From NCBI GenBank assembly GCA_019326865.1, contig GCA_019326865.1_4101.1: a stretch of DNA of 64,000 bases; one strand, written 5' to 3'. Source of the stretch: a phage. Positions 25,348-61,462 of this stretch are shown piece by piece; position 1 is the first letter of the stretch, and each line of letters opens with the position of its first letter. The position numbers were made by a program, and so were the translations under genes. Under the pieces are notes generated by a model, which saw only the letters and a list, made by a program, of their open reading frames with translations, made no database searches and had not been told where the DNA came from.

Positions 25348-26010
25348 ATGTTAGTAAATCTTAATTTCATCACTTCTCCTGATTGGGCATTACGTGGTGT
25401 TTCTTTGAACTTTAAAGAAACTAATTTCGACTACATTGGGGATTGTACTTTAGTTAATGCTACATTTGATCCTCATCATCCTTTTTGGGCTAAGATTCAT
25501 GATCCTAATGTAAACAATAGTGTATCTGTTATGACTATTGTACAGACGAAATATCCTGGCATTCTCGCAGGTGACCATCCTAAAGTTGCAATTAATCATT
25601 TCACTGATTATGATGTAGTAGATGAGTATCCAATGATTCATGAAGATGGAAGTTTATACACATCTGAAGACGTTCGTGCTATCTTTAATAGTACTGATGA
25701 TATTCTACCAAGTGGACGAGCACGTCCTAAGTCTTATCTTATGCATTCATCTTATGGTGTAGCAGATACGCTTGAGCAGATTATGAAGAAGTACAAGAAC
25801 CTAATTGAAGGTCCAGAAGAAGTTGTCATGTGCTATCATCCAGTACTGAAGTCTGAGCAACCAAAGGATGGTGGTTGGCGTTGGCATAAGAATGGTGATT
25901 ATATCGGTACGAAACGAAGTAAAGAACGTTTTGAGTACTTGTATGATGAGCCAGATGTTGATGTGGTTTTGTGTTATAATTTTATTAAGGTGAAAAAGAA
26001 ATGTATCTAG
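25348..26010 (+). CDS. hypothetical protein
   Basis: 220-aa ORF. Confidence 0.55.
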   Translation: MLVNLNFITSPDWALRGVSLNFKETNFDYIGDCTLVNATFDPHHPFWAKIHDPNVNNSVSVMTIVQTKYPGILAGDHPKVAINHFTDYDVVDEYPMIHEDGSLYTSEDVRAIFNSTDDILPSGRARPKSYLMHSSYGVADTLEQIMKKYKNLIEGPEEVVMCYHPVLKSEQPKDGGWRWHKNGDYIGTKRSKERFEYLYDEPDVDVVLCYNFIKVKKKCI

Positions 26011-26243
26011 TACTAAGTTTTGTTGTTGCACTATTGTTTATGTTTTACCCTACACTGGTAGCACTAGCTACAAGACGAACAGTTGGCGATATCACAACAG
26101 TATTCTTGTTAAACGTGGTTCTGGCACTAGTGTCTATTATAATCCCAGTAAACCCCAATGTTATTGACATGGTAACAGTATTTCTCTTTGTATTCAGTTA
26201 TCTTATTCTTATCGATGAAAAACCTGTTGACAAACAATCTTAG
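26001..26243 (+). CDS. small integral membrane protein
   Basis: 80 aa, two hydrophobic helices. Confidence 0.45.
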   Translation: MYLVLSFVVALLFMFYPTLVALATRRTVGDITTVFLLNVVLALVSIIIPVNPNVIDMVTVFLFVFSYLILIDEKPVDKQS

Positions 26244-26295: not shown

Positions 26296-26616
26296 ATGTT
26301 ATCAGTATTGTTTTCAATTCCATCTTTAATTCTAATTTGGATTATTGTGTATGAATGTTTTATTGTAGATGATACGGAGAAAAAAGAATTCAATGAGTTA
26401 TTCATGCTTGATACGCCAGTTGTCCGCATTTTCTATTCTGTAGTTATCGTTTCAGTACTTGCATGGATTGTAAGTTTTATCTTTCCAATGGGTATGATCA
26501 TTAATGTGTTGAATTTGGTTGAAAACACTATTGCTATTCTATGGCTAATTAAAGCGTGGTATTCAGGAAATGTTAATATTTGGATTGATATTATTAAATC
26601 TAAATTTACAAAATAA
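26296..26616 (+). CDS. small integral membrane protein
   Basis: 106 aa; SD GAGGGTATAAAAT-ATG. Confidence 0.5.
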   Translation: MLSVLFSIPSLILIWIIVYECFIVDDTEKKEFNELFMLDTPVVRIFYSVVIVSVLAWIVSFIFPMGMIINVLNLVENTIAILWLIKAWYSGNVNIWIDIIKSKFTK

Positions 26617-30404: not shown

Positions 30405-30788
30405 ATGGTTGATAAATGGAATAAGAAAGATCCATCCCATGATGTTGATATTTCTGGTCTAGATGATGCACATAAGCATAAGTATCTAGATTCACTAGGT
30501 CTTCTCAAACCGGACCAAAGTCTTGCACACGAACGCCCATCACGTGAAAAAGCATTCAGTCTAGAATCACTTGGTCATGAGCTAAATCGTGTGTTTGAAG
30601 AACACCCAATTTATGTACGTGATATTATTGAGAAACTTAAAGTAACTCCTAAAGAGCACTTTAAAGCAACTGTACATTCTGCATTCCGTGCATTGCATGA
30701 TTCTCTCAAGAAAACTCATAATCTTCGTAAAATTCATGATGAAATTGTGAATGCAATCGAAAGTGAAAAGCATAAGTTTAAGAAGTAA
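30405..30788 (+). CDS. hypothetical Lys-rich protein (KYLDSLGLL motif)
   Basis: 127 aa; SD TAGGAG; shares HKYLDSLGLLK motif with 32096 ORF. Confidence 0.5.
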   Translation: MVDKWNKKDPSHDVDISGLDDAHKHKYLDSLGLLKPDQSLAHERPSREKAFSLESLGHELNRVFEEHPIYVRDIIEKLKVTPKEHFKATVHSAFRALHDSLKKTHNLRKIHDEIVNAIESEKHKFKK

Positions 30789-32095: not shown

Positions 32096-33337
32096 ATGCC
32101 TAGTGATTATAATAATGGTGATATGAAGCACAGAAATGGTGCAATTGTTCAACATTCAAAACGCAAGTCGGAGTACCGCCCTGCTGGAAACTATCATAGT
32201 GGTAGAAAAATGAGTCGTAACCAAAGCACTGGTGCACAAGGTGTAGAAAATGCAAAGCCAGGTGAAGTAACAGATACTTCCAAAATGAATCAACATGAAA
32301 AATTAAAATACATGAATGCTTTGGGATTACTTAATGCTCATCAAAAAGAGCAACTAGCTGCAATGGATAAAGCACAAGAACGACCAGAAGCAGCAGAAGC
32401 CCCCGCACAATCAAAAGCGACTAACCCTGTCAAAGAACTGTCTGATAAGTTAGGTAAGATCTTTGCAAATAAACCCCAACTTATTCAAGGTATTGTCAAA
32501 GAATTGCAATCTGTACCTAAAGAAGAATTAAAAGTCAAAGCACAAGCTGTTCTGGATGCAATGAAAGGAAATACCAGTACTGAACCAACCGAAGTATTCA
32601 GTACTATTATGCGTGCACTGGAAGGTAAACAACAAGGTGAAGAACGTGGTGATGAAGTAAGTCTTGAACGTGTTCTTAAAACATTTGATAGTATTGGGAA
32701 AGAAGACCGTGTTAATGCACAACAGGTTAAAAATGTACTAGCAAAATTGGAAAACCGTCTAGAAGGTAAAGATGATAAGATTAAATTGGTATCCGATGCA
32801 GTTGAAAATGCACTTAAATCTTATGTACAAGGTGAAAAGAGTCGTTTTGTAACTGCTATGGATGCTGCATTCAATACTATGAAAAAGTACGAAGCGGATC
32901 ATGGAGAGAAGGTAACACGAGATGGTTATTTGATGCGTGATGATGAAGAAGGTGCAGTGGAACAGAATGATGTTCATTCTGACGAAGATATTGATGACAT
33001 GGAAGCAGAACTGTCACAGGACCGCCAAATGACTGAAAAATCTCACAATGAACTAAAGAAATTAATGCAGTGGGTTGCAGACGTAGGTGAAAAGGCGGGT
33101 GCTGACAAGAAGAGTATCAACCGAAACCTAAGTTGGATTAAAGATAAGGTTGGTAATAACGCTCGTAAACTACAAAAAGCATGGACTGATGTAGTGAATG
33201 GTGCAGTAGATATTGACGTTGAATCTGGTGAAGCATATGATTATGCATTGATTACACTTGATGATTCTTTTCGTGACTACGAAAAAGGAAACGTGACTCC
33301 TTGGGAAAAAGACATAATGAGCAAATACGGTAAATGA
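32096..33337 (+). CDS. hypothetical hydrophilic Lys/Glu-rich protein
   Basis: 413 aa; SD AAGGAGGG; EKLKYMNALGLLN motif shared with 30405 ORF; visibly higher GC than neighbours. Confidence 0.55.
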   Translation: MPSDYNNGDMKHRNGAIVQHSKRKSEYRPAGNYHSGRKMSRNQSTGAQGVENAKPGEVTDTSKMNQHEKLKYMNALGLLNAHQKEQLAAMDKAQERPEAAEAPAQSKATNPVKELSDKLGKIFANKPQLIQGIVKELQSVPKEELKVKAQAVLDAMKGNTSTEPTEVFSTIMRALEGKQQGEERGDEVSLERVLKTFDSIGKEDRVNAQQVKNVLAKLENRLEGKDDKIKLVSDAVENALKSYVQGEKSRFVTAMDAAFNTMKKYEADHGEKVTRDGYLMRDDEEGAVEQNDVHSDEDIDDMEAELSQDRQMTEKSHNELKKLMQWVADVGEKAGADKKSINRNLSWIKDKVGNNARKLQKAWTDVVNGAVDIDVESGEAYDYALITLDDSFRDYEKGNVTPWEKDIMSKYGK

Positions 33338-33370: not shown

Positions 33371-33406
33371 GTTATCATAGCTTTCCTAACTACAAAGGAT
33401 GACGTG

Positions 33407-34048
33407 ATGACTAAGCAAGAAATATTCAAAACATTAATTGACATTTTACGTTCATCTAAAACTCGTTGTGCAATGGAGTTTGATATTCCTTACGCTGAAC
33501 GAGTCATCTTTCCACAAGTAAAAGAGGCAGGGCTTACTTTACTTGGTATGGGGATGTACTCTGTAGTAGTTGAACATAAAAACTATCCAGGTCGTGCATT
33601 TAAAGTAACCACGTCACGATGGGATGGTTTTCGTGCTTATGCAAAGTACTGTATTGATAACACAGGAACTAAGTTTCTTCCTGTAATATACAGTGCAAAC
33701 GAGCAAGGAAACTTTGGATGGTATGAGATGGATAAGTACTACCCTATCATTAAACAAAAAAACAATTATGATGACTTTGTTAGCACTAAAATTGGAGATT
33801 TGTATTCGTATGCACATGCTGGTCAGCACGTAACTTCAGTGAATGAACTGCGTGGAAATTCAGAAGAGATTGCAATTGCAACTGTTGTAGCTAACATAAT
33901 GAAAGAGTTTCATGGTCGTTTTGTACCAGACATTCATTCCAGTAATGTAATGATGGATAAAGATGGAAATTTATTCATCACTGACCCTATTTCGTGTGAT
34001 GTACGTCGAGAAATACCAATCACTGAAGAAGACCCAATTTTTTATTGA
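33407..34048 (+). CDS. putative atypical protein kinase-like protein
   Basis: Gly-rich loop LGMGMYSVVV, AFKV lysine strand, catalytic-loop-like DIHSSNVMMDKDG, ITDPI (DFG-like). Confidence 0.4.
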   Translation: MTKQEIFKTLIDILRSSKTRCAMEFDIPYAERVIFPQVKEAGLTLLGMGMYSVVVEHKNYPGRAFKVTTSRWDGFRAYAKYCIDNTGTKFLPVIYSANEQGNFGWYEMDKYYPIIKQKNNYDDFVSTKIGDLYSYAHAGQHVTSVNELRGNSEEIAIATVVANIMKEFHGRFVPDIHSSNVMMDKDGNLFITDPISCDVRREIPITEEDPIFY

Positions 34049-34111
34049 CAGAACTTGTGTTCTGGTGTATATTAAGTGAATTATAAACAAATTGTGACAC
34101 AGGATTAAATC

Positions 34112-34393
34112 ATGCGTTCATTTGAAAACTTAATAGGTAAACTTCTTTTATCTGAAATTAGTGAAGACGTTAAGGAATTATGCAAATCAAAAAGTTACAT
34201 TCATTTGGATGAACTGTTTGTTAAGTACGGAGAGATTAGTTTTAAATCATTATTTGTTTTTACTATGAAAGTACATAGTTTAAAGTACTTCGATTTAAGT
34301 TATAAAAATGGTCAACCAAATCTTTATCATATGTATTATCTCAAGAATATAGAAGAAGCTCATATCTTATTTTCTGAATATCTGAAGGTATAA
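34112..34393 (+). CDS. hypothetical protein
   Basis: 93-aa ORF. Confidence 0.45.
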   Translation: MRSFENLIGKLLLSEISEDVKELCKSKSYIHLDELFVKYGEISFKSLFVFTMKVHSLKYFDLSYKNGQPNLYHMYYLKNIEEAHILFSEYLKV

Positions 34394-34394
34394 A

Positions 34395-34733
34395 ATGGAA
34401 CAATATTTTGAATTAGTTAATAAAGTGTCATTCTATGTAGTGTCATTGATTTGGGTTTATTTCATGTTTTGCTACATTATTGCATTCTTCCGATATACTA
34501 CTTTATATGAACGTATCTATTATGATGCACCAATTTCATTCTTGGTGTTCTGTGCATGTACCTTGGGAATATTAGAAGTACTGATATGTGGATATAGTAC
34601 TGATGGATTAAATCTGGTATCGGTATTGACTGGGTTATCACTTGGTGTTATGATATCTTTCTTTCCAGTATGGTTGTTCTTTGAACTGATCCATCGCATT
34701 GATGTATGGCGTTCTAATATCCCTGAAAAATAA
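34395..34733 (+). CDS. small 3-TM membrane protein, family member
   Basis: Three hydrophobic helices, basic C-terminal tail ...RSNIPEK. Confidence 0.55.
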   Translation: MEQYFELVNKVSFYVVSLIWVYFMFCYIIAFFRYTTLYERIYYDAPISFLVFCACTLGILEVLICGYSTDGLNLVSVLTGLSLGVMISFFPVWLFFELIHRIDVWRSNIPEK

Positions 34734-34736
34734 GGA

Positions 34737-35084
34737 TTGATAATGATTTATTACACTAACGTGTTTGCCTATGCTGTTGCTTGCATTTACATTGTTTACT
34801 TCTTATTTGGTGGAGTGCTTTGCTTCTTTAAGTACAAAACACTGTTTAATAGGATGTATCCAAATCATCCTATTGTAGTTGTACTTTTGATTCTTTCTCT
34901 TTCCCAAATAATCGTTGAAACTACATTGGGTATCAGTAGTGTACATTATAGTTTTGGCACTATAGTAATTATTACTATGCTTATTGCATACATTTTAGTA
35001 CTTGGATATGGTATATTTGGTAATGTTGGAATGAAAATGTATCATCGAATTAAAACCTTACGTGATAATCTACCGGAGCGTTAA
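34737..35084 (+). CDS. small 3-TM membrane protein, family member
   Basis: Paralog; C-terminus ...LRDNLPER. Confidence 0.55.
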   Translation: MIMIYYTNVFAYAVACIYIVYFLFGGVLCFFKYKTLFNRMYPNHPIVVVLLILSLSQIIVETTLGISSVHYSFGTIVIITMLIAYILVLGYGIFGNVGMKMYHRIKTLRDNLPER

Positions 35085-35085
35085 G

Positions 35086-35430
35086 ATGTATAATTTAAAC
35101 CTAATCTCATATATTATAACAACCCTGTTTACATTTTATGTCTATGTTGGTATAATCCTACTGTACTTTAAATTTTATAAAGTGTTTAACCGTTTCTATC
35201 CTTCAATGGAGAATGAGTTCTTCTTTGTGTTGTACGTCTGCTACACGCTAATGGCTACTTGTTTCACTGTAGTTGATGGTATCATTGGTATTAAAGCAGA
35301 TGGACCAAATGGTAGTACGCTGGTTGCATTTATTCTTACCGGATTCTTGGCAACTTATATTACCTTCATTTCAACATGGTCAGTGGTTGAATTTCTCTTA
35401 CGACTACGAAAGAATATGCCGAATCGATAG
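35086..35430 (+). CDS. small 3-TM membrane protein, family member
   Basis: Paralog; C-terminus ...LRKNMPNR; ATG 35086 after SD GGAGCG. Confidence 0.55.
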   Translation: MYNLNLISYIITTLFTFYVYVGIILLYFKFYKVFNRFYPSMENEFFFVLYVCYTLMATCFTVVDGIIGIKADGPNGSTLVAFILTGFLATYITFISTWSVVEFLLRLRKNMPNR

Positions 35431-36935: not shown

Positions 36936-37196
36936 ATGAAAATTTTATTAGTTCTAATACTACTAATACTACTAATTGTTTTACCATTTACTTTAGTATC
37001 TCCTGAACTTGCATGGAATGTGTTTGTGTACTTAGTATGTACTATTGCGGTAAATGGTATCTTGTTCTTAGTTCTATTCATAAATGGAATAGGACACGGG
37101 GGTGGGTGGACCAGTACTGCTGATATTGTACATAAAACCACTATGTCTTTATTTGTAGTGTGGAATTTATTCTGGACTTGGTTTGTGTTCTTCTAA
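36936..37196 (+). CDS. small integral membrane protein
   Basis: 86 aa, almost entirely hydrophobic. Confidence 0.45.
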   Translation: MKILLVLILLILLIVLPFTLVSPELAWNVFVYLVCTIAVNGILFLVLFINGIGHGGGWTSTADIVHKTTMSLFVVWNLFWTWFVFF

Positions 37197-41315: not shown

Positions 41316-41831
41316 ATGACACGCATTAACTTAGTACACGTTAAAGAACTTGCAGACCAACATCTGATGGCTGAATATCGTGAACTACCACGTGTATTTG
41401 GTGCTGTACAAAAACACGTTCAAGCACGTAAGCGTGTACGTGATTTCAAAATTAACAGTACTTATCTGTTAGGTTCAGGTCATGTGACATTCTTTTACGA
41501 CAAGTTGCTGTACTTACAGAAGCGTCATATCGATATTGTCAACGAATGTTTGCGTCGTGGTATGAAGATTCAAAATACTGAAGTAAACGACATTAGCAGC
41601 TTCCCTGCTGAGTTTTGTAATGACTATGTACCATCGGAGTCAGAGATTGAAATGTCTCGTAAGCGTTTGATTGAGAAGCTTCAGATGAAGCCTACGTGGT
41701 ATAAGTTTACTGATGTTGAATGTCCACAGTACGTTACAGATATGCTGAACGTAAGTAGTAAGTTCGAATATAGTACGGCTATGTTAGACGAAATTGAAGA
41801 ACAAATCAAAGATGAAATGAATAATTATTAA
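41316..41831 (+). CDS. denV: pyrimidine-dimer DNA glycosylase (T4 endonuclease V homolog)
   Basis: [35 protein letters not shown]...RVRDFKI...[10 protein letters not shown] closely matches T4 DenV as recalled; ~35-aa C-terminal extension. Confidence 0.9.
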
Positions 41832-42538: not shown

Positions 42539-42571
42539 GGGTTGACTTTAGTCAGCCCTTTTTGCTATAAT
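42539..42571 (+). promoter_or_regulatory. terminator-promoter cassette (PeSL-like)
   Basis: GGGTTGACTTTAGTCAGCCC + T5 + CTATAAT + CATTTCATC leader + GAGGAT SD. Confidence 0.6.
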
Positions 42572-42599: not shown

Positions 42600-43373
42600 A
42601 TGAACCGTACAGAGAAAGCACTCCAAATTGAAAAGAACTTCAACTCCATGATGGCAGCACTGGAATGTCTTCTTGATACACAAACTAACTCGATCAACTC
42701 GCTGATCGTTTCTGGTAAAGGTGGTGTTGGTAAAACTTACAATGTTGACCAACGGTTACAGAAAGCTGATGACAACTTTGAAATCGACTACAAGAAAATC
42801 AGTGGTAAAGTAACTACTGTAGGTCTGTACGAAGCACTGTATCGTTCACGTCATGCTGCTTCAGTACTGTTACTTGACGACGTTGATATCTTCTCTGATG
42901 AAACGAATATTGATTTGCTTAAAGCTGTATTGGATACTTCTGAGAAGCGTGTAGTGTCTTATGCTACATCTGCGAAGTACCTGGAACAGCAGGGTATCCC
43001 TAAACAGTTTGAATTCCGTGGTAAAGTAATCTTTCTGACTAACAAAAATCTGTCACAGATTGCTAAAGGTAAAAGCAGTTTAGCACCACACATTGATGCA
43101 CTGATTACTCGTAGTATCTTTGTTGACCTGCAACTGTTCACCAACGAAGAAGTTATGATTCACATTGAGAATATCATGAACAAAACTAACATCCTTGAGA
43201 ACAATGGTGTTAACAAAAATGGTTGTAAAGCAATTTTGAACTGGATGTTGAGTAATGAAGATCGTCTGCGTTCACCTTCACTGCGTATGCCAGTACTGAT
43301 CGCTGGACTGTATAATAAATTCCCATATGATTGGGAGTCAATGGCAGAGAATATGTTCCTTGAGAAAAATTGA
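42600..43373 (+). CDS. P-loop NTPase with deviant Walker A (ParA/MinD-like?)
   Basis: SGKGGVGKT Walker A and hhhhDDVD Walker-B-like LLLDDVDI. Confidence 0.4.
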   Translation: MNRTEKALQIEKNFNSMMAALECLLDTQTNSINSLIVSGKGGVGKTYNVDQRLQKADDNFEIDYKKISGKVTTVGLYEALYRSRHAASVLLLDDVDIFSDETNIDLLKAVLDTSEKRVVSYATSAKYLEQQGIPKQFEFRGKVIFLTNKNLSQIAKGKSSLAPHIDALITRSIFVDLQLFTNEEVMIHIENIMNKTNILENNGVNKNGCKAILNWMLSNEDRLRSPSLRMPVLIAGLYNKFPYDWESMAENMFLEKN

Positions 43374-43429
43374 TCACGAGCATTAACCGAACTAACAATG
43401 TGTAGTATTTAATTTACTGGAGACACCCA

Positions 43430-43771
43430 ATGTGTGAGTTTTTTGAATCTAATATAATGCTTGGTATTACATTGATATACATGTATGTATTCTTGTTTTA
43501 TCATTCAATTGTAATTAGTCTTTGGTATTTTAAAAGGAAAATGGTTTTTAAATTATATTCATATGATAATGTATTCTTAGTTATATATAGTATCATACAA
43601 GGTGGGTTTGTTCTATTTGGTATTATGACGTATGTGATTTATAGATTACAAATTGATAACACACCATACATTACACAATATGTTGTGTTTTCAGGACTAA
43701 TCGTATGGTTATTGGTGTGTATAATTTATTTTATAATTAAAGCTCGTGATAAAATTAAAGGGGATTTCTAA
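43430..43771 (+). CDS. small 3-TM membrane protein, family member
   Basis: 113 aa; three hydrophobic helices; C-terminus ...KIKGDF. Confidence 0.55.
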   Translation: MCEFFESNIMLGITLIYMYVFLFYHSIVISLWYFKRKMVFKLYSYDNVFLVIYSIIQGGFVLFGIMTYVIYRLQIDNTPYITQYVVFSGLIVWLLVCIIYFIIKARDKIKGDF

Positions 43772-44109
43772 TGTTAGAATTTTTTAAATCAGATGTGATG
43801 CTTAGTATTACATTGATTTATATGTTTGGTTTTTTATTTTATCATCTACTAGTTGTAGTTCTATGGTATTTTAAAAAGAAAATAGTTTTCAAACTGTATC
43901 CACCTAGTAACATTTTATTGTTTCTTTACACACTTATTCAAGGTATGTTTGTTATTATTGGTGTTATCACACACTTAATCTATTGTTATAATCCACATTT
44001 AAAATCAATAACACAATATATTGTTTTCTTTGGGTTGTTCATTTGGTTAATTATATACTTAATTGAACTCATTATTCATAGTAGAGAAAAAATTCGTGGA
44101 GACTTCTAA
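43771..44109 (+). CDS. small 3-TM membrane protein, family member
   Basis: Close paralog of 43430 ORF (MLEFFKSDVMLSITLIYMFGFLFYH...). Confidence 0.55.
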   Translation: MLEFFKSDVMLSITLIYMFGFLFYHLLVVVLWYFKKKIVFKLYPPSNILLFLYTLIQGMFVIIGVITHLIYCYNPHLKSITQYIVFFGLFIWLIIYLIELIIHSREKIRGDF

Positions 44110-44456
44110 TGTTTGAAGCTTATCTTGATTTTTTAAGAAATAGTCCAGTTGCACATTCACTTGCAGGAATTATACTAACAACTTATATCACATTTTGGGG
44201 AGTTATGTTTCTAGGATGGTATTTTAAACGACAATTCTATAAACGTAATGGCGAACATTTTATGAATTCTGTCATTAATCAATCGTTGTTTGCATCAACA
44301 TTTATAGCATCTATTTTAGCCATACTCACAGGAAAGGTTCTGCCAGCGTATTCAGTAACTTACGGAACACTTTGGATGATATGTTTAACTTTTATATTGA
44401 CCATTAAAATTTGTTGTGTTATGATTGAACTTCGAAATAAGATACCGGAGGAATGA
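44109..44456 (+). CDS. small 3-TM membrane protein, family member
   Basis: C-terminus ...ELRNKIPEE; TAATG overlap. Confidence 0.5.
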   Translation: MFEAYLDFLRNSPVAHSLAGIILTTYITFWGVMFLGWYFKRQFYKRNGEHFMNSVINQSLFASTFIASILAILTGKVLPAYSVTYGTLWMICLTFILTIKICCVMIELRNKIPEE

Positions 44457-44791
44457 TGGAGTATTTTATTGATTTACTGCCGTGGTATATGAAAGTGAGT
44501 ATTTTATACTATATTATTAGTACTGGATTCTACTTCCTGATGTGGTTTTTTAAACGACCAATTTCAGTGTACATTGCTAATAACATGCTGCAATTAAAAT
44601 TACACGCATGGTTTTTTATGGCGATGTTTATGCCTATTATTCACTACTCAATGATTAGTATAGGTTTACGTTCTAATGGTGAACCAATTGTATTAGTATT
44701 CTATTGGGGTTCAACTATAGTATATTTCGGTTTGCTATTGTTCCCCATCATTCATAAATTACGTGCTAAAGTTCCTGATGCGAGGTATTAA
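44453..44791 (+). CDS. small 3-TM membrane protein, family member
   Basis: C-terminus ...KLRAKVPDARY; ATGA overlap. Confidence 0.5.
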   Translation: MMEYFIDLLPWYMKVSILYYIISTGFYFLMWFFKRPISVYIANNMLQLKLHAWFFMAMFMPIIHYSMISIGLRSNGEPIVLVFYWGSTIVYFGLLLFPIIHKLRAKVPDARY

Positions 44792-45105
44792 TGGATATCG
44801 TAACATTGATCTACACGTTGTATTCATTCTATTTCATTATGTGTTGGGTTGGATTTTTATTTGTACTCAAGATGTTTGATTATGTTGAAAAACAGATAAA
44901 AGATTTTTGTATTCCTTTTATCGGTTCAACCATTATTAGTGTTTCTTGTGTTTATTTTTTAGTGTTTGATCCACCAGATAACACTGCGATGATTGACTTC
45001 ATGTTACTACCAACCACTGTAATTTTTTTATGTAGTCTGATGCCACCTATTAGTCGTGGATTAACTGAATTTAGACGCAAACAAAAGCGTAAAAGAGGGA
45101 TGTAA
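44791..45105 (+). CDS. small 3-TM membrane protein, family member
   Basis: C-terminus ...RRKQKRKRGM. Confidence 0.5.
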   Translation: MDIVTLIYTLYSFYFIMCWVGFLFVLKMFDYVEKQIKDFCIPFIGSTIISVSCVYFLVFDPPDNTAMIDFMLLPTTVIFLCSLMPPISRGLTEFRRKQKRKRGM

Positions 45106-45473
45106 TGGAAATTGCTCTTATTATCTTAACTGCTATGCTGTTTATTAGTACATTGGTTATAATTGGCAAATTCTTTTGTGTATCATTTTTAGAAACGGTA
45201 TACGATGAAATTGCTGATGATTATGAATTACACGCCGGATTTTTCATTACGTATTGGCTTAGTTTATTTTGTCTAGTCATTGTTTGGATTTTACATATCT
45301 TTAAATGGGGTATGGTGGACGGTGATCCTATCATGGCAATTATTGTTCTAGTGTTTGGTATCCTAGGTGGTGCAGTACATAATATGATGGTTATTTGGCA
45401 AACTGTTCAATGTGTATTGGTTCCTTATTTCGAAAAAATGCACAGTACAATTAAAAAACGTAAACGAGGTTAG
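45105..45473 (+). CDS. small 3-TM membrane protein, family member
   Basis: C-terminus ...KKRKRG. Confidence 0.5.
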   Translation: MEIALIILTAMLFISTLVIIGKFFCVSFLETVYDEIADDYELHAGFFITYWLSLFCLVIVWILHIFKWGMVDGDPIMAIIVLVFGILGGAVHNMMVIWQTVQCVLVPYFEKMHSTIKKRKRG

Positions 45474-45474
45474 T

Positions 45475-45837
45475 ATGAACGGGATTGAATTATCTTTCAT
45501 TGGTCAAATACTAGTAATGGTGAATACTTTCTTTTTCTCACTTATTGCATTAATGTGCATTGGAAAGTATTTTCATAAACAACCATTCTCAAATTTATAT
45601 GATGTAATAAAAAAGAAATATAGTCCTGCACATAGTGTACTTATTTGCAGTTTCAATTTTGGTTTTGTTGTATTAATAATTGGATTGTTAACATCAACGT
45701 CAAATGTAATGATCTTCGGTCTTATGATCTGTTCATTGGTATTAGCAGTAATTGTATGTTGTTTAGTACTGCACCTTGTAGTACTATTATATATAAAGCT
45801 CGTTGAAATCCATCAACGTTTAGGTATGAGGAAATAA
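45475..45837 (+). CDS. small 3-TM membrane protein, family member
   Basis: ATG 45475 1 nt after upstream stop; track start 45412 rejected. Confidence 0.5.
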   Translation: MNGIELSFIGQILVMVNTFFFSLIALMCIGKYFHKQPFSNLYDVIKKKYSPAHSVLICSFNFGFVVLIIGLLTSTSNVMIFGLMICSLVLAVIVCCLVLHLVVLLYIKLVEIHQRLGMRK

Positions 45838-45838
45838 T

Positions 45839-46210
45839 ATGAGTTACCGTGAGATATTTTCCATTATTTCAATTATTATGTTCAGTGCTGGGACATTGGT
45901 GTGGGTATTATATTTTTTCTGTGTATCACCAGTGTATAATATGTTATGTAATATTAAATCAAGTTCTGGATATATGACTTTTATGATCTTTATGGGATAT
46001 TATTGTCTAAGCATTTTAGGTGTTGTTTTGGTTGTTATATTTGATGTAGGGCCAAATAAGGATGGTCTGAAAATGTATGAGTTAATAACTATGTTTGGGT
46101 GTATGATACCAACTGCACTAATGTTTGTAGCTATTGGTGCTGGATGTATAAAGTTATACAATTATTTAAAATCCATTCATCATTCCATTCATAATAAACG
46201 TATGTCATAA
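45839..46210 (+). CDS. small 3-TM membrane protein, family member
   Basis: C-terminus ...IHNKRMS. Confidence 0.5.
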   Translation: MSYREIFSIISIIMFSAGTLVWVLYFFCVSPVYNMLCNIKSSSGYMTFMIFMGYYCLSILGVVLVVIFDVGPNKDGLKMYELITMFGCMIPTALMFVAIGAGCIKLYNYLKSIHHSIHNKRMS

Positions 46211-46251: not shown

Positions 46252-46902
46252 ATGATGAAATCAAAATTAGGTTTGTTTTATGGAAACTACTTCATTAAAC
46301 AGCGTAAATTCATAAAAAAATACTTCTCCACAGAGAAATCTAGTCCTATAATTTTTAAAAGACCAAAATATAATTTTTACTTAGCAGGTGCTAAACAGTC
46401 TAAGAAATTCATTACATTTTTAAATAAAAACAAAATTAAAGCTTCTTATGTTGAAACTAGAAAGAACTCATCGATAATTCCTGGTGATTTCATTGAATAC
46501 GGATGTTTCAATATTAAGTACAATGATAGCACATACTGTATGGATATTGATTGCAATACATCAAATCTTTTTAACATTGTAATAAATCCATCGAAACAAT
46601 ATAATGTTTATGGTGATTCAATTATCAAATTAATAAAAAACAAAGATTGGTTTGATTTTGAAATAAATGTTTTAGATGAAAATTATGATGAAGTTCCAGT
46701 TAACCCTGAAATATGTGATATATTAAACAGTTTAAAAGGTAGTAGCTACAATATACCATCTGATTTAATGTTTCAGTACTCTTTAATACATAAAGATATT
46801 GAACATTATATTGTGTGTGCTAAAATCTTGAATTATCTGTATGATGAATTTAAAATGAGTTCTAAAATAACAGCATATACTCTTTATAATATTTCTATAT
46901 AA
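46252..46902 (+). CDS. hypothetical protein
   Basis: 216-aa ORF, convergent with RCC1-like array. Confidence 0.5.
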   Translation: MMKSKLGLFYGNYFIKQRKFIKKYFSTEKSSPIIFKRPKYNFYLAGAKQSKKFITFLNKNKIKASYVETRKNSSIIPGDFIEYGCFNIKYNDSTYCMDIDCNTSNLFNIVINPSKQYNVYGDSIIKLIKNKDWFDFEINVLDENYDEVPVNPEICDILNSLKGSSYNIPSDLMFQYSLIHKDIEHYIVCAKILNYLYDEFKMSSKITAYTLYNISI

Positions 46903-46916
46903 TTTAAAATATTAAA

Positions 46917-46952
46917 GCCAGTACGAGAGCACTGGCTTTAATATTATTTTTT
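46917..46952. terminator. bidirectional terminator between convergent genes
   Basis: Hairpin GCCAGT-ACGAGAGC-ACTGGC flanked by A-run and T-run. Confidence 0.55.
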
Positions 46953-48089
46953 CCAAGGAAGTAACGAAGTTGGAATCTTGATAGGTATATTTGATGCAAC
47001 AACATCAGGAAAATTTGCATCTCCACAAACATACAAATTATCGATTTCGTCTATCAATAATGTATAGTTGTAACTTCTACAAAAACCACTTAAGACTCTT
47101 CCCTCTAATGCAGATAAATTCATTTCAGTGAATTGAGTGATATATGTTTCATTTGAACCAACACCACATTGACCATTAGCATTTATACCACAAGTAAGCA
47201 ATTTATTATTGTTTTGAATTACACATGATGGTCCAGCAAGGTTCGTACCTAGTTCACCTACAACATTAACTTCACCTTTTAATGATAAATTTGGGATCAC
47301 TGTACTCATTGGGACTCGAGATGTATTTCCGACACCTGCTTGCCCTGAGCCATTAGTGGATGCTACTTTAACAGTACCGTCATTAAGAAAAATATAAGAT
47401 GTTTCGATTGTATTAACTGCTTGAGTAGCTGATGTTATTGACGTATCCTGTTTGAATTTAAGTACATTTGTCGTTGTTGAACCAGAGATAAATGTAGCAC
47501 CTGCGTACCAATATGTTCCATCCTGGAGTACTAAACCAGTACTTCTAATTGAACACCCAGCACTTCGAACATTTTCTATATGACTATATGTAAAGGTTGA
47601 TACGATTGAAGATTCACCATTACCGAACACCCCACCAGTACCTGCACCACAGAAAAACCATTTACCGTTTTTCAAAAATACACGCATACAAGCAGAAATA
47701 ACCACACTATCAATATCACTTGCAGTTACACCAAAATCGGTAAATAAATGAGTTATATCAATCCAATTACCACCAGTATTTGATGGGAGATGTGGAATTA
47801 CAACTCTAGTCCCTGTGTACCAGATTGTATCATCATCTTTAATAACAAGCGTACCTTGAACACCACCCCAATACCTGGTTACATTAGTATTAACAAGTGT
47901 CCACTCATTAGATGATTCCGTTGAGCCATTACCACCTTGACCATATGATGATGAACCGCACCAGTATAAATTGCCATTTTTATTTAAATAAAATTTTGCA
48001 TCAGCCGAGCATTGTAATCTGTATTTGAATACGGTTTTTGGTGCTGGTGCAATATTTGCATACTTAATCATTCTTCCAAAAGGTAACAT
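46944..48089 (-). CDS. RCC1-like beta-propeller repeat protein, paralog 1
   Basis: N-terminus MLPFGRMIKYAN; blade-like motifs LYWCGSSSYGQGGNG, LLTCGINANGQCGVGSNE. Confidence 0.6.
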   Translation of the reverse strand: MLPFGRMIKYANIAPAPKTVFKYRLQCSADAKFYLNKNGNLYWCGSSSYGQGGNGSTESSNEWTLVNTNVTRYWGGVQGTLVIKDDDTIWYTGTRVVIPHLPSNTGGNWIDITHLFTDFGVTASDIDSVVISACMRVFLKNGKWFFCGAGTGGVFGNGESSIVSTFTYSHIENVRSAGCSIRSTGLVLQDGTYWYAGATFISGSTTTNVLKFKQDTSITSATQAVNTIETSYIFLNDGTVKVASTNGSGQAGVGNTSRVPMSTVIPNLSLKGEVNVVGELGTNLAGPSCVIQNNNKLLTCGINANGQCGVGSNETYITQFTEMNLSALEGRVLSGFCRSYNYTLLIDEIDNLYVCGDANFPDVVASNIPIKIPTSLLPWKK

Positions 48090-48162
48090 AATTTCTCTCC
48101 TTCATTCATTATACTGTATTTAACCCAATTAAGAAAAGCCAGTATCAAGTACTGGTATTTTA

Positions 48163-49512
48163 TTATTGTAATGGAATTTCAGTGAGTGTTTTATATGTAC
48201 TTCCGTTATACACCCCTCTCCAATATACTTTACCATCAGTACTAACCACTAATAATCCATATGTTGTAAACCCAAGAGTACCACCAACATACATAGCATC
48301 TTTGATTCTAATACCAATGTCTTCATATGTAAATGACGCGACTGCACCCGCTTGCCATGAAGGACTAGCGTAGTAATCACTATAAACACCATGTGCTTTA
48401 TATATTGATGTTGTTCCTGGTTCAAAAATTACAGTTCCACAGTAGTTCATTCGTATTTTAGTACTGGATGAAGTTGGTACATTTATACCTACGTCATCTT
48501 TTATCCCTGTGGTTAGGACGTTAAAACCACCCGCCACACGGTTGACGTCATTCGCACCGATTAAATACATACCAACGTTGTAGCCCATATAAAACACACT
48601 AGAGCTTCCATTCCAGAAAGAAAAACCACCACCATTCCCACAGCGATATAGTTGTGAATTTGAGCAGTACATCATACCTTCGTTTGTCGCATCAAATTCA
48701 TCTGCTTTTCCTATTGTAGCTACTGTAGTCCAAGTTTTAATTACTTGGTTTGTACTAGCTGGTGTTTGTATACCATATCGTATATTATACCCTTTACCGA
48801 CTATTGTACCATCTTCTAATTTGGCATAAAGTACAGGTCTATTACCAACAAAATACATATTATTGTGTGACATGTCTATTGTGCATCTTAATGAAACTAC
48901 TTTTTGTTTCAATTGATTATCTTTAGTAAAAGAAGTAAAGTAGTAATCTGATGTTGAGTTGTTTATTAAACCTTGTATTGACAACCCCATATACCAGATT
49001 TCTCCATTACTGTTCAATGCTGCCAAAATACAACTATATTTTGAAGTATATGCTGGGGTTACTGATGTTGCTGGTCCTTTATCATATCCACCACAGAATA
49101 CCATCTCCACAACTTCACCCACGTTAGCAAAATAAGAAGATACATTGATAAAACCATTTGTTATAAAAGGTGCTGTATTTATACTTGAATGTGTGAATAT
49201 CCCATTTGCATATACACCACAAAAATGATATGAACCATCATTATCTTGGACTATTATTCCATTTGATAGTAACCAAAAATTGTTTACATTTTTTCTTACT
49301 AATTCGATTCCTGCCCCATTAGTTGGCGTTATACCAAAAGAAACATATTTTGTTTGACCAATTCCATATAAATTTCCATTTGATGCTAATATTGCACCAA
49401 ACCAATTACCACCACCATTCTTGTTATGACCCATACCTATAGAATCAAATTTCTTAACAGTAGGAGCTTGTACTTTGTTCCCATAATTCACCATTCTTCC
49501 AAAAGGTAACAT
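48163..49512 (-). CDS. RCC1-like beta-propeller repeat protein, paralog 2
   Basis: N-terminus MLPFGRMVNYGN; G/S/T/N-rich repeats. Confidence 0.55.
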   Translation of the reverse strand: MLPFGRMVNYGNKVQAPTVKKFDSIGMGHNKNGGGNWFGAILASNGNLYGIGQTKYVSFGITPTNGAGIELVRKNVNNFWLLSNGIIVQDNDGSYHFCGVYANGIFTHSSINTAPFITNGFINVSSYFANVGEVVEMVFCGGYDKGPATSVTPAYTSKYSCILAALNSNGEIWYMGLSIQGLINNSTSDYYFTSFTKDNQLKQKVVSLRCTIDMSHNNMYFVGNRPVLYAKLEDGTIVGKGYNIRYGIQTPASTNQVIKTWTTVATIGKADEFDATNEGMMYCSNSQLYRCGNGGGFSFWNGSSSVFYMGYNVGMYLIGANDVNRVAGGFNVLTTGIKDDVGINVPTSSSTKIRMNYCGTVIFEPGTTSIYKAHGVYSDYYASPSWQAGAVASFTYEDIGIRIKDAMYVGGTLGFTTYGLLVVSTDGKVYWRGVYNGSTYKTLTEIPLQ

Positions 49513-49584
49513 ATTTCCCTCCTTTATTCATTATACTATATTTAATACTAAAAGAAAAAGCCAGTATCAAGTACTGGCATTATG

Positions 49585-50694
49585 TCATTTTGGTAAATTA
49601 ATTTTAGTAAAGGCTGCAACATCCTCGATTGCACCAGGAATTGCGTAATACGATCCAGTACTATATACATCTCCGTCTTTGGTTAATATTGATGTTAAAC
49701 CATCACTAAAAAGAACATCCCTAATCTCACTAACTTCAACGGGTAATTGTAAATTAGTAGCACTATATATTGCACCAGTTTGAGAATTGTTTAATCCCAA
49801 ACCACGGTTCGCCCCAACACCCTTCTGATATGTACTAGTAATTACCATTTGTGTAGCAGTATTTAAGGCAGGTGAATTCGTCATAAACAACGGTGAACTA
49901 TTAGGCAAAGTACTTGCAGGAACTGCACGAAATGTAGTTGTATCTGAACTAAGAAAGTTTGGCGTTTGACCACATACGAAATATGATGTACCATTATAGT
50001 AATTAAATGCATTACCACCAATGACTGCATCGATTACACCAGAGCTACGTAATCCCCACGTGTTAATTTGTGTTCGGTTCCCCGTGCCATGCTGACCCCT
50101 GTCATTCCACCCAGAACTATATAACTTATTATCTAATGTAATATACATACTGTCATTTGCATTCGTCATTACTTTACGCACATTAGTAGCACATTGAGTT
50201 AATGTGTAAATTGATGATGAACCAATACCTAAAGCACCACGATATCCATTAGCTCCTGCACCATAGAGTACTGAACTAGTGCTAAGTACAAATATTAAAC
50301 CATACGAACATACAATATTAGCAATTTCACTCACTGGTATAGCACTGGTAAACCAATTAGTTCTTTCAACTAATACTGTGCTGTAAGAAGTAGTTGTAGA
50401 CGATGTGAACCAATATGTTTCCCCTGATGTCCATATAGTATTATCATTTTTAATAATAACAAGTGCACGATCACCTACGAAAAAATTAGAAACATCTGCA
50501 CTTACTAATATCCATGAAGATACCGTGTTTTTATTACCATTTCCAGATTCACCACCTTGATTTCTACCTATGTAATATAAATCATGTGAATCAGTTAATA
50601 AGAATTGACCCTGTGTAGATGCACCAACTTTAATTATATTTTTAGGACCAGGTACAATATTCCCATAATCAAACATTCTTACAAAAGGTAACAT
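49585..50694 (-). CDS. RCC1-like beta-propeller repeat protein, paralog 3
   Basis: Start set to MLPFVRMFDYGN after SD GGAG; motifs YYIGRNQGGESGNG, YSSGWNDRGQHGTGN. Confidence 0.6.
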   Translation of the reverse strand: MLPFVRMFDYGNIVPGPKNIIKVGASTQGQFLLTDSHDLYYIGRNQGGESGNGNKNTVSSWILVSADVSNFFVGDRALVIIKNDNTIWTSGETYWFTSSTTTSYSTVLVERTNWFTSAIPVSEIANIVCSYGLIFVLSTSSVLYGAGANGYRGALGIGSSSIYTLTQCATNVRKVMTNANDSMYITLDNKLYSSGWNDRGQHGTGNRTQINTWGLRSSGVIDAVIGGNAFNYYNGTSYFVCGQTPNFLSSDTTTFRAVPASTLPNSSPLFMTNSPALNTATQMVITSTYQKGVGANRGLGLNNSQTGAIYSATNLQLPVEVSEIRDVLFSDGLTSILTKDGDVYSTGSYYAIPGAIEDVAAFTKINLPK

Positions 50695-50768
50695 AACTAA
50701 AATCTCCATATAATAATTATAATGTATTTACAAAAAAATACCAGTACGTATTTCAGTACTGGTATCAT

Positions 50769-51950
50769 TTATGGTAAAATGATAGATTGTAACGAACTCA
50801 TACCCAATGCTGGAACACTAGCCTGTGGTGCTGGAGAATTCAATTTTGGTGATGAAACCGCATATGACATTCCTGAACCCAAATCTGGATCAAAAACTAC
50901 AGCACAATAATTCCCACTATATATAAGTCCATTCTTGTATCCTTGTGCACTTTGAATGCATTTCGTGAACGTACCAATATCTGTCGTGGCATTTATTAAG
51001 TTCCTCCCACGATAACCGCAGGTGTATATGAAATTATCATCGCCTATGTACATACTAGAATCCCCAGAAGAACTACATAGATACGACATATAAGCACGCA
51101 TGTTTTTAGGAGCAACTGACAATGTACCTGCATAGAATTTATTATTCGAACCCGTAATATCACCATCACCCAATGCACCAAAACTTCCCCAGCCAGTACC
51201 GTAATATCTCTTATCACTCAAAAATATAATACAGTTGTTATTACACATCTTGATTTGATATATCAATGAAGGATCAACCCCAGGGAATGATTCAGTGAAT
51301 GTTAGAACAGCCGGATCAGTACTAGCATTACATTGATGATATGTATTAGTACCAGCGGACAAGATTGTTCCATTAGCTAACAGAATTCTCGCAGTACCAG
51401 TACCAGCAGTACAAGCAACTGCACTTCCTGCACTTCCGGTGTATATTTGTCTGAAAGTAAAGAAACCAACAGTTTTACTTCCCTGCCCACTCCAACCAGT
51501 ATTATCAACTCCACACGCCCATACTGAACCATCTTGCATGATCATCATTACACCAAAGCGTTCTATTGAAATATAAACAATCTTCGTTGTATCAACTGCA
51601 CTAAATCTAGAAGTTATATCAGTCCATACCTTAACACTTACCGCCGTCGCACTGGAAGTAGGATCTTCACCAGCTATCATTATCCTCCCATTGTTAGTAA
51701 GATACATTGTCTGACTATAACCAGTACTACAAAACTTAACACTATCAGTCTCTGGAACTTTTAACCACTCGTTGTAACGTGTTACGTTAGTGTTATTACC
51801 TAACTGATAATAGTTATTCATCCCAGATACATATAACACACCATCCTTTATTAAACTATAAGTCGCACTATAGTCACTACAGGTATAACGTGTACCCACA
51901 GGTCGCTCAACGACGTTCCCGTACTTAACCATTCTCCCAAAAGGTAACAT
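50769..51950 (-). CDS. RCC1-like beta-propeller repeat protein, paralog 4
   Basis: N-terminus MLPFGRMVKYGN; YVSGMNNYYQLGNNTN. Confidence 0.6.
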   Translation of the reverse strand: MLPFGRMVKYGNVVERPVGTRYTCSDYSATYSLIKDGVLYVSGMNNYYQLGNNTNVTRYNEWLKVPETDSVKFCSTGYSQTMYLTNNGRIMIAGEDPTSSATAVSVKVWTDITSRFSAVDTTKIVYISIERFGVMMIMQDGSVWACGVDNTGWSGQGSKTVGFFTFRQIYTGSAGSAVACTAGTGTARILLANGTILSAGTNTYHQCNASTDPAVLTFTESFPGVDPSLIYQIKMCNNNCIIFLSDKRYYGTGWGSFGALGDGDITGSNNKFYAGTLSVAPKNMRAYMSYLCSSSGDSSMYIGDDNFIYTCGYRGRNLINATTDIGTFTKCIQSAQGYKNGLIYSGNYCAVVFDPDLGSGMSYAVSSPKLNSPAPQASVPALGMSSLQSIILP

Positions 51951-52023
51951 ATTTTCCTCCTTTATTCATTATACTATATTTAATACAAAAAGAAATGCCA
52001 GTATCAAGTACTGGCATATTAAT

Positions 52024-53172
52024 TCATTGTATAAATGACATATCTACTTCTGTATAATTAAGAACGTTCTGTCCAGAAATACCACCCATTACTACTATTG
52101 CAAGGCCACAATAATATAATTTTCCAGTATCCGTAAGTATAAGTGATCCAGATGGACTGCGTACCAAATCACACGAACTATTAAAAGAAGTATAAGAAGG
52201 AGTATAGGAGTACTGATTATTATTATTACCAACACCTAATTGCCCAAACCCATTCGATCCAGAAGCATATAGAACTTCATCTGCTTTGACAATATGTGAT
52301 GCCATGTTACCAACACAAGTATATAGAGTATAAACTCCTGAACTCAATAATGTCGGAGTTTTATATTGTATATCTGTAGATGTAGAAGTACCACCTGTAC
52401 CAAATTCGTTCCCATATTGTGCACCGAACTGTTTACCACAAGCGTACAAATTATTATCCGATTTGATAAAAAATGTACTCTGATAACTTACATTAAAATC
52501 TATAACATCCGAAGAAATCATCGTCACCCCAGTAATAGAAGTTTGATTACCCGTGCCCAACTGGTAGTAATAGTTAAAACCACAACCCCATAAAGTATTA
52601 TCTTCTCGCAAATAAATGTTACCAACTGCCTTTTTAACCGAAGTTATAGTATCTACTCTTTTGAATGTGTTAAAAGAATTAATGTTTGTACCATCACCAA
52701 ATGATGATATGTTCGATATATTGTTAACTCCACAACAATACAATGTACCATCTTTTGTTATCAAATTCACCTTCATATCATAAAAACTACTCATGTATTT
52801 TATATCAGAAACATTAACACCACTTGATGTTATCCACGTAGTACAGTCCGTCCACAAAGTTTTTCTATCAGTTACACCAGTGAATGCCTTCGTGTTACCA
52901 GTGATAAAAACTTTTCCAGTACCTTTCTCTTCATACAATTGACAATCACTACTGTTATCTTCCAATAGAACTCGTTTAACATTCTCCGCACAAAGAATAA
53001 ATTTACTCGATGCTACACCTGTACCAGTACCCCAATTCGTCGCAGAAGATGCATACAACTTATCAGTATAAGTATCATGAAGATACATAGAATCACTGGA
53101 ATATATTTTAAAACGCCCTTCTTTCTCAGGTATAATATTCCCGTACTTAACCATTCTCCCAAAAGGTAACAT
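52024..53172 (-). CDS. RCC1-like beta-propeller repeat protein, paralog 5
   Basis: N-terminus MLPFGRMVKYGN; LWGCGFNYYYQLGTGNQTS, YASGSNGFGQLGVGNN. Confidence 0.65.
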   Translation of the reverse strand: MLPFGRMVKYGNIIPEKEGRFKIYSSDSMYLHDTYTDKLYASSATNWGTGTGVASSKFILCAENVKRVLLEDNSSDCQLYEEKGTGKVFITGNTKAFTGVTDRKTLWTDCTTWITSSGVNVSDIKYMSSFYDMKVNLITKDGTLYCCGVNNISNISSFGDGTNINSFNTFKRVDTITSVKKAVGNIYLREDNTLWGCGFNYYYQLGTGNQTSITGVTMISSDVIDFNVSYQSTFFIKSDNNLYACGKQFGAQYGNEFGTGGTSTSTDIQYKTPTLLSSGVYTLYTCVGNMASHIVKADEVLYASGSNGFGQLGVGNNNNQYSYTPSYTSFNSSCDLVRSPSGSLILTDTGKLYYCGLAIVVMGGISGQNVLNYTEVDMSFIQ

Positions 53173-59186: not shown

Positions 59187-59426
59187 ATGGCTAAATCAAA
59201 AATGTTCTTAGGTCACAAAAACAAAACTCATTGGAATGTAAGCCTTTGGATTAATAACGATGAGTCATTGTACCGGTTGGCCCAGGACTTTATTGCCGCC
59301 AACACTAATCGCAATGATGCGGCCCGTCATATGATGTTATTTTTAGAACAGACTGGACAAGATAAAACACCGGACGGATTCAAATATAGCACTACTGCGA
59401 TCCGTGCGGCGATGGTTGGAATGTAA
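59187..59426 (+). CDS. hypothetical protein, 79-aa paralog A
   Basis: SD AGAGGAT; KNKTHWNVSLWINNDESLYR ... PDGFKYSTTAIRAAMVGM; paralog of 61223 ORF. Confidence 0.6.
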   Translation: MAKSKMFLGHKNKTHWNVSLWINNDESLYRLAQDFIAANTNRNDAARHMMLFLEQTGQDKTPDGFKYSTTAIRAAMVGM

Positions 59427-61222: not shown

Positions 61223-61462
61223 ATGGCTAGTACTAAAACTTACAACGGACACAAAAACAAAACTCATTGGAATGTTTCATTGTGGATTAATAACGATGAA
61301 TCATTATACCGGATTGCTCAAAATTGCATCGCTCAAAGTAAAACGAAAGATATTGCAGCGGAATTTATGTACCGCAGATTAAAAGCCAACGGTACTACTA
61401 CAACGCCGGACGGATTCAAGTATAGCACTACGGCGATCCGTGCTGCAATGGTTGGAATGTAA
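61223..61462 (+). CDS. hypothetical protein, 79-aa paralog B
   Basis: SD GAGGAT; same KNKTHWNVSLWINNDESLYR and PDGFKYSTTAIRAAMVGM blocks as 59187 ORF. Confidence 0.6.
   Translation: MASTKTYNGHKNKTHWNVSLWINNDESLYRIAQNCIAQSKTKDIAAEFMYRRLKANGTTTTPDGFKYSTTAIRAAMVGM

Follow-up and report, generated by a model that had tools for sequence, protein, structure and literature searches.

The stretch of DNA analysed here, hereafter the window, comprises 64,000 nucleotides (nt) of the phage contig GCA_019326865.1_4101.1 (GenBank assembly GCA_019326865.1). We examined eight small open reading frames (ORFs) on its plus strand at 43430-46210 (the A array) and three more at 34395-35430 (the B cluster). Together, ~3.8 kb of a jumbo phage genome is given over to a single, strongly diversified inner-membrane protein family. 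The sequence between 43000 and 47000 is 94.6% identical to Escherichia phage UE-S1 and 87-90% identical to 121Q, PBECO4, G17 and ~30 further Asteriusvirus jumbo phages (310-386 kb); the source is an Asteriusvirus, that is, a 121Q/PBECO4-like jumbo phage of Escherichia coli. In all deposited genomes, the genes of both clusters are annotated as "hypothetical protein". The eleven genes are as follows (sizes in amino acids, aa; the types T1-T7 and the subgroups I and II are described below).

43430-43771, plus strand: A1, 113 aa, type T1, lineage-specific duplicate, subgroup I; phrog_19454
43771-44109, plus strand: A2, 112 aa, type T1, subgroup I, tail KIRGDF
44109-44456, plus strand: A3, 115 aa, type T2, subgroup I, WYFKR ... 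LRNKIPEE
44453-44791, plus strand: A4, 112 aa, type T3, subgroup I, WFFKRP ... LRAKVPDARY
44791-45105, plus strand: A5, 104 aa, type T4, subgroup II, tail FRRKQKRKRGM
45105-45473, plus strand: A6, 122 aa, type T5, subgroup II, GKFFCV ... MHSTIKKRKRG
45475-45837, plus strand: A7, 120 aa, type T6, subgroup II, GKYFHK ... IHQRLGMRK; start revised from GTG 45412
45839-46210, plus strand: A8, 123 aa, type T7, subgroup II, YFFCV ... IHHSIHNKRMS
34395-34733, plus strand: B1, 112 aa, subgroup I, FFRY ... WRSNIPEK
34743-35084, plus strand: B2, 113 aa, subgroup I, FFKYK ... LRDNLPER; start most likely ATG 34743
35086-35430, plus strand: B3, 114 aa, subgroup I, YFKFYK ... LRKNMPNR; start most likely ATG 35086

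An earlier interpretation made from the letters and ORF translations (the sequence-only reading) had named the same eleven ORFs, and the ORF listing confirmed them together with the N-termini and tails quoted for them. Its size range for the array, 104-141 aa, held at the lower end, and the upper end was corrected to 123 aa. The 141-aa ORF starts at GTG 45412 and overlaps A6 by 62 nt. Because 121Q annotates a 363-nt gene at this place and a GAGG motif precedes ATG 45475, we assigned the start of A7 to that ATG, which gives 120 aa.

All eleven proteins are paralogues of one small family with three transmembrane segments (TM), as the sequence-only reading had proposed; topology, alignment and hidden Markov model (HMM) tests agreed on this point. 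By pairwise BLAST, A1 and A2 share 53% identity and are indeed close duplicates, B1-B3 share 23-25% over their full length, and the other pairs were not clear. Profiles of the orthologues of each type were built from phages 121Q, PBECO4, JNE01 and A4 and compared with hhalign. The resulting probabilities were 96% for T2-T3 (E 2.8e-9), 95% for B1-B2, 89% for B2-B3, 64% for T5-T7, 57% for T5-T6 and 39% for T1-T2; further weak links were present, and many alignments were in register, some of them near full length. At E<0.01, 17 of the 45 type pairs were connected, compared with none of the 45 reversed-profile controls. In a leave-one-type-out test, a window protein and all sequences matching it at E<1e-3 were removed from the 62-member alignment and the HMM was rebuilt. 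The eleven proteins scored 19.1-45.4 bits in this test (A3 45.4, B3 44.3, A8 40.1, B1 39.8, A6 32.8 and A5 29.8 bits), the column layout having been made with the left-out sequences present. Reversed sequences reached at most 5.7 bits, 200 shuffles at most 13.7 bits and seven other small multi-TM ORFs of the window at most 7.5 bits. The full family HMM recovered exactly the eleven among the 190 window ORFs, and the small multi-TM ORFs at 16487-16906, 16906-17331, 26001-26243, 26296-26616 and 36936-37196 (plus strand) were not members (family HMM E>2).

Particular residues are shared at fixed positions as well. All 62 members have Phe in alignment column 41, and column 156 is Arg or His in 61 of 62. 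The first hallmark, [IV][LG][WK][FY]F[KC], lies at the cytoplasmic end of TM1 and contains the invariant Phe; the second is a D-G in loop 2; the third is the C-terminal L-x-x-[LFI]-[RH]-x-[KN]-[IL]-[PKR]-[ED]-[KR]. Subgroup I (A1-A4 and B1-B3) is characterized by W[FY]FK[RK]P ... R-x-K-[IL]-P-[ED], and subgroup II (A5-A8) by a GKFFCV-like motif followed by H-x-x-I-x-x-KR-G.

Given inter-type identities of ~20-25% and many weak pairwise E-values, the likeness might be thought purely compositional, the ORFs being unrelated or spurious hydrophobic frames in an AT-rich genome. We rejected this explanation and regard it as extremely improbable. The leave-one-type-out scores lie 15-30 bits above the reversed, shuffled and other-TM controls, other multi-TM ORFs of the window fail the family HMM that recovers 11 of 190, and the invariant Phe and the shared motifs occur at fixed positions. 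Moreover, orthologues were found in >35 phage genomes, and the matches of the deep profile search described below are nearly all full length. Measured against close relatives, all eleven genes have ratios of nonsynonymous to synonymous substitution rates (dN/dS, Nei-Gojobori) of 0.06-0.40 (0.20-0.22 for A1), well below 1 and similar to those of flanking genes; these are functional genes under purifying selection.

Exactly three hydrophobic segments were found in all eleven proteins by Kyte-Doolittle analysis with a 19-residue window. The AlphaFold2 model of A1, computed with the eleven paralogues as the alignment, contains long helices at residues 8-33, 48-73 and 78-107 and a short juxtamembrane helix, with a mean predicted local distance difference test score (pLDDT) of 75.9. 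Three hydrophobic helices followed by a basic C-terminal tail, the architecture originally described, were thus seen consistently in all copies by hydropathy and alignment, and in the model of A1. Across the 62 family members, the mean net charge per protein is -0.63 at the N-terminus, +0.71 in loop 1, -0.87 in loop 2 and +2.61 in the C-terminal tail. Because this bias follows the positive-inside rule, the N-terminus and loop 2 are predicted to be periplasmic and loop 1 and the tail to be cytoplasmic (N-out/C-in).

A comparison with divergent relatives clarified how the A array may have arisen. JNE01, Turkey5 and phage A4, all divergent Asteriusvirus, carry a syntenic array of one-to-one orthologues in the same order, T1 to T7, at 26-66% identity. 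For A2, the orthologues in JNE01 and phage A4 are 41-44% identical, and conservation between lineages is highest for T3 (gene A4; 53-66%). The array consists of seven ancient paralogue types in a conserved order plus one recent duplication, A1/A2, a point that the earlier interpretation had missed. We considered recent tandem duplications for the whole A array and rejected them; A1/A2 alone is recent. Since PBECO4 has a single T1 copy and lacks A1, the T1 duplication is specific to the clade of the window phage, UE-S1 and 121Q; in JNE01 and Turkey5, T4 is duplicated instead. The orthologues do not diverge evenly along their length, with 48% identity in the N-terminus, TM1 and tail versus 28-32% in TM2, loop 2 and TM3.

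A fixed order of T1 to T7, with one-to-one orthologues retained in the window clade, JNE01/Turkey5 and phage A4 despite only 26-66% identity, is also what speaks for the main rival to the interpretation that we favor below. According to this rival, T1-T7 are subunits of one hetero-oligomeric assembly in the inner membrane (a channel, a scaffold or a platform for anchoring, for instance), which may be served by the ATPase encoded upstream and whose subunits are made in equal amounts through translational coupling. Also in its favor, both subgroups occur in every array examined, and the cytoplasmic motifs common to all members could form a shared docking surface. The number of members, however, ranges from 4 to ~10 between lineages, and the array of contig L017 is interleaved in its order. 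On balance, we consider a hetero-oligomeric complex rather unlikely.

The packing of the genes bears on the same question. The junctions from A1 to A8 measure -1, -1, -4, -1, -1, +1 and +1 nt, and those of p93/B1/B2/B3 (p93 being the gene ahead of the B cluster) measure +1, +9 and +1 nt. The overlapping stop and start codons previously proposed for the array were thus present at five of the seven junctions (overlaps of 1 or 4 nt), whereas a 1-nt gap separates the genes at the other two. Stop and start codons that overlap or abut throughout would suit the coupled synthesis of subunits, but tight gene packing is common across the whole window. A GGAG/GAGG-type motif precedes every start in both clusters. 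As read from the sequence, the Shine-Dalgarno motif of the next gene lies within the last codons of the preceding one: GGA GAC encodes G-D, CCG GAG GAA encodes P-E-E and AGA GGG encodes R-G. The codons of a conserved tail also serve the following gene as its ribosome-binding site, which had gone unnoticed before, and tail conservation is therefore partly a dual coding constraint.

Copy number was found to vary among related jumbo phages, from 2 to ~11. For the A array, 4 members were counted in the Salmonella 7t3-like phage, 6-7 in contig L017, 7 in PBECO4 and phage A4, 8 in the window and JNE01, and 9-10 in contigs L010 and L014. Three copies make up the B cluster of the window and of PBECO4; JNE01 also has three, with an unrelated soluble gene inserted, and phage A4 has one. 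The same 93-aa gene always precedes the cluster. More distant arrays differ in gene order and subgroup composition. The metagenomic contigs L010, L014 (324 kb) and L017 encode an ATPase 72-86% identical to that of the window followed by 6-10 members that are at most 30% identical to those of the window. In the Salmonella 7t3/SE_PL-like phage L019 and contig L020, an ATPase of 69-70% identity is followed by ~4 members, and L019 has one B-like copy a few kb upstream, beyond a T7-type kinase gene. Erwinia phage Hallingskeid and contig L013 each have two tandem copies without an ATPase. When 1.84 billion representative proteins were searched with a profile, only 31 clusters were returned at E<=1e-3, all of 56-127 aa and nearly all with full-length alignments, and a word-indexed search of 5.8 billion sequences returned 21 clusters, all close orthologues of the window genes. 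By these matches, the family is confined to Rak2-like enterobacterial jumbo phages and has expanded in Asteriusvirus.

Individual members may be dispensable, because the T4-type gene of 121Q is split into two ORFs (gp228/229; L002 3146-3461) and T2 is nearly deleted in Salmonella phage SD-1_S14, where a 30-codon remnant (L022 1835-1924) accompanies a fragmentary ATPase; sequencing or assembly errors are a possible alternative.

A short soluble peptide of 42-44 aa (MKPEQWIIDDMR...WYVKVLNSKE; phrog_27942) is conserved in several related phages, where it lies inside the membrane-protein array or immediately behind it (L010 1516-1644, L014 11125-11259, L017 1817-1945 and L019 7781-7909); it was looked for in the window and not found there.

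The surroundings of both clusters were also annotated, and the features that bear on expression and partnership are listed here.

42542-42571, plus strand: putative sigma-70-like promoter of the ATPase-array unit, TTGACT-18-TATAAT with an extended -10 TG (consensus scan 11/12)
42600-43373, plus strand: stand-alone AAA+ ATPase gene, 257 aa, phrog_1250; upstream of the array and not a family member
46252-46902, plus strand: gene for a 216-aa soluble protein, phrog_34359; last gene of the array unit, context
46908-46945, plus strand: strong stem-loop terminator, a 15-bp stem and then a T run; UE-S1 has an annotated terminator at this site
33404-34048: gene for a T7 gp0.7-type protein kinase/host-transcription inhibitor, 214 aa, phrog_15752 (2e-88); a host-takeover gene just upstream of the B operon
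34045-34073, plus strand: putative sigma-70-like promoter of the p93-B1-B2-B3 unit, TTGACA-17-TATATT (consensus scan 11/12)
34112-34393, plus strand: p93, gene for a 93-aa soluble protein, phrog_37917; ahead of the B cluster, context

The array unit accordingly runs from the promoter through the ATPase gene, a 56-nt spacer, A1-A8 and the 216-aa gene to the terminator, which faces five convergent RCC1-like genes. The latter are tandem paralogues for beta-propeller proteins of 374-449 aa on the minus strand (46944-53172), and the ATPase-array-RCC1 layout recurs in distant relatives. On the other side, two genes ahead of the ATPase gene, is a gene for a DenV-like pyrimidine-dimer DNA glycosylase (41316-41831; Pfam Pyr_excise, 1e-14).

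The array always lies behind an AAA+ ATPase gene, which had also been overlooked: such a gene stands ahead of the array in all lineages whose ATPase is at least ~69% identical. This constancy would favor an assembly served by the ATPase. Other observations point the opposite way. The ATPase model (AlphaFold2, pLDDT 92.9) shows a generic AAA+ fold of the kind seen in MCM, MoxR, Cdc6 and sigma-54 activators, the protein resembles generic or DNA-related AAA+ proteins, and no membrane-targeting feature was found in it. Copies of the family without an ATPase exist elsewhere (the B cluster and the two copies each in L013 and Hallingskeid), and L021 encodes a more distant ATPase homologue without an array. 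Furthermore, the window ATPase is 100% identical in amino acid sequence to that of UE-S1, 96% to that of JNE01 and 58% to those of 121Q, PBECO4 and phage A4, whereas the array genes follow the reverse pattern, with 30-53% identity to JNE01 and 77-95% to 121Q. These opposite relationships point to a recombination breakpoint in the 56-nt spacer (43374-43429); the ATPase gene is an allele mosaic. Such incongruent histories would not be expected of tightly co-adapted partners. Although the adjacency is conserved, the data argue against tight co-adaptation of the ATPase with the membrane proteins, and with its generic fold and its history uncoupled from that of the array, the ATPase was set aside as a clue to array function, no mechanism having been gained from it. 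A more specific form of the rival, in which T1-T7 build a phage-made complex of ~21 TM helices early in infection, with the neighboring ATPase perhaps remodelling or loading it, would amount to a new virus-encoded membrane machine in a jumbo phage that forms no nucleus; the machine might be a channel, or a platform that anchors replication or assembly. We think this improbable.

The same context speaks to the timing of expression. Across the window, the T4-late-type octamer TATAAATA is depleted (3 observed versus 14.4 +/- 4.1 expected), and a window scan found none near either cluster. This depletion is consistent with the window being an early/accessory region, transcribed almost wholly on the plus strand. 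In the related phage CBB, late promoters were reported to resemble TATAAATA, and RpoD-like promoters to cluster in a region of short ORFs that is presumed to serve early host takeover (PMC5259590). Because both clusters have sigma-70-like promoters and no nearby TATAAATA, the B operon has a T7-type kinase as a neighbor and the endolysin gene is distant, early expression unconnected with lysis is the most economical interpretation, and it rests on consensus matches.

The sequence-only reading had offered lysis regulators as one option, and these data disfavor it. The definition of class I holins is that of lambda S-type holins, and the generic architecture (three TM, N-out/C-in by charge bias only, a short charged C-terminal tail, ~95-130 aa) is indeed found here at ~100-125 aa; lambda S105 and P22 gp13 resemble the family in size, TM number, predicted topology and charged tail. 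No sequence relationship accompanies this likeness, however, since holin families gave no match in Pfam (E<=1), PHROGs or NCBIfam, and the dual-start motif of the lambda S kind is absent. The family also differs in its eleven copies and its host-type promoter context; its promoters appear sigma-70-like with the late-type motif absent nearby, and no lysis gene is apparent within either operon. There would be no precedent for eleven holins expressed together, and such a set would probably be lethal at an early stage of infection. In addition, the endolysin of this phage group is of the signal-arrest-release type (121Q gp532; PMC5259590), and the A array corresponds to 121Q gp224-232, ~300 genes away. 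We therefore regard holins, antiholins or lysis-timing regulators as very unlikely.

Searches of Pfam, NCBIfam, PADLOC and PDB sequences with the family proteins yielded nothing meaningful; among the PADLOC defence models, a single chance-level match was obtained (PycTM, E 0.035, one of the eleven members). No match with E<1 was found when the A1 model was compared with BFVD and PDB using Foldseek. Seven PHROGs (19454, 19046, 27396, 33258, 26405, 27618 and 19285) gave full-length matches with E-values of 1e-45 to 1e-67, and phrog 16874 ("membrane protein") gave a weak match. These seven correspond to the orthologue groups of individual types and have no assigned function; the family is split there into at least seven separate groups, and A7 is in none. 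New relative to PHROGs are the single superfamily, its shared motifs, its two subgroups and the ordered array.

Two known kinds of membrane protein invite a comparison of function with regard to the superinfection-exclusion or immunity-like roles that the sequence-only reading had also suggested. T4 Imm has 83 aa and two TM segments, and Sp has one TM; both are small early inner-membrane proteins of a large virulent coliphage, which makes them the functional analogy that we tentatively prefer. In contrast to the present family, they are encoded by single genes rather than arrays, and they show no sequence match (no Imm family match in Pfam or PHROGs). Colicin E1/Ia-type immunity proteins, of ~110 aa with three TM, recognize the incoming pore-former by intramembrane helix-helix contact and are similar in size and TM number to the family, and bacterial orphan immunity genes accumulate in tandem arrays. 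They differ in being bacterial or plasmid-borne rather than phage early genes, and no sequence match was obtained (colicin immunity families, Pfam E<=1 or NCBIfam E<=0.1). The topology reported for ImmE1/Iia is also the opposite, with a cytoplasmic N-terminus.

Overall, the eleven genes are shown to be real and to form one lineage-restricted, expanded family of small inner-membrane proteins with a common topology pattern, purifying selection, conserved order and variable copy number. We lean, with less than even confidence, toward the interpretation that these proteins act as early membrane guards or takeover factors; the early timing, the independent action and the protective or takeover function are what we infer. 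The genes would be co-transcribed from host-type (early) promoters, and their translation would be coupled through the Shine-Dalgarno motif of the next gene in the conserved C-terminal codons. Each paralogue would insert, alone or as a homo-oligomer, into the cytoplasmic membrane of the infected cell. A constant scaffold facing the cytoplasm would be made up of TM1, the juxtamembrane [WK][FY]F[KC] motif and the basic tail, and specificity for a given membrane target, contacted helix to helix, would reside in the more variable TM2, periplasmic loop and TM3. Possible targets include the DNA entry of superinfecting phages, pore-forming or depolarising attacks (abortive-infection effectors and colicins) and host membrane proteins. 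We counted in favor of guards or takeover factors the variable copy number, the differing order and subgroup composition of distant arrays, the possible dispensability of single members, the divergence of TM2 and TM3, the takeover-type kinase neighbor and the parallel with the early region of CBB.

Several points weigh against guards or takeover factors. The fixed order and one-to-one orthology of the seven types fit non-redundant machine parts equally well. The promoter calls are consensus matches only, and the region shows no significant excess of promoter-like sites (43 found versus 33.9 +/- 5.7 expected). The faster divergence of TM2 and TM3 may reflect loose constraint on lipid-facing helices, and the assemblies of the SD phages may be error-prone. 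The database searches described above gave nothing meaningful, and neither sequence nor structure linked the family to any characterised exclusion, immunity or takeover protein. In the literature, we found no description of the family and no early transcription data for Asteriusvirus. The rest of the probability lies with functions beyond the readings considered here.

Jumbo phages spend much of their coding capacity on small genes without assigned function, and here an ordered, coupled array grew from ~4 to ~10 members within one phage lineage. Should the proteins prove to be guards of diversified specificity, nature would have supplied a small collection of binders that work within the membrane, directed perhaps at phage entry routes, pore-forming toxins or defence effectors; a single complex, on the other hand, would constitute a viral membrane machine of a new kind. 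The clear motifs (the invariant Phe and the conserved tail) and the simple genetic layout make the family tractable in E. coli.

Other paralogous sets were also noted in the window, namely 9136-9561, 9554-9919 and 11045-11473; 30405-30788 and 32096-33337; and the pair 59187-59426 and 61223-61462, whose members share 67% identity.

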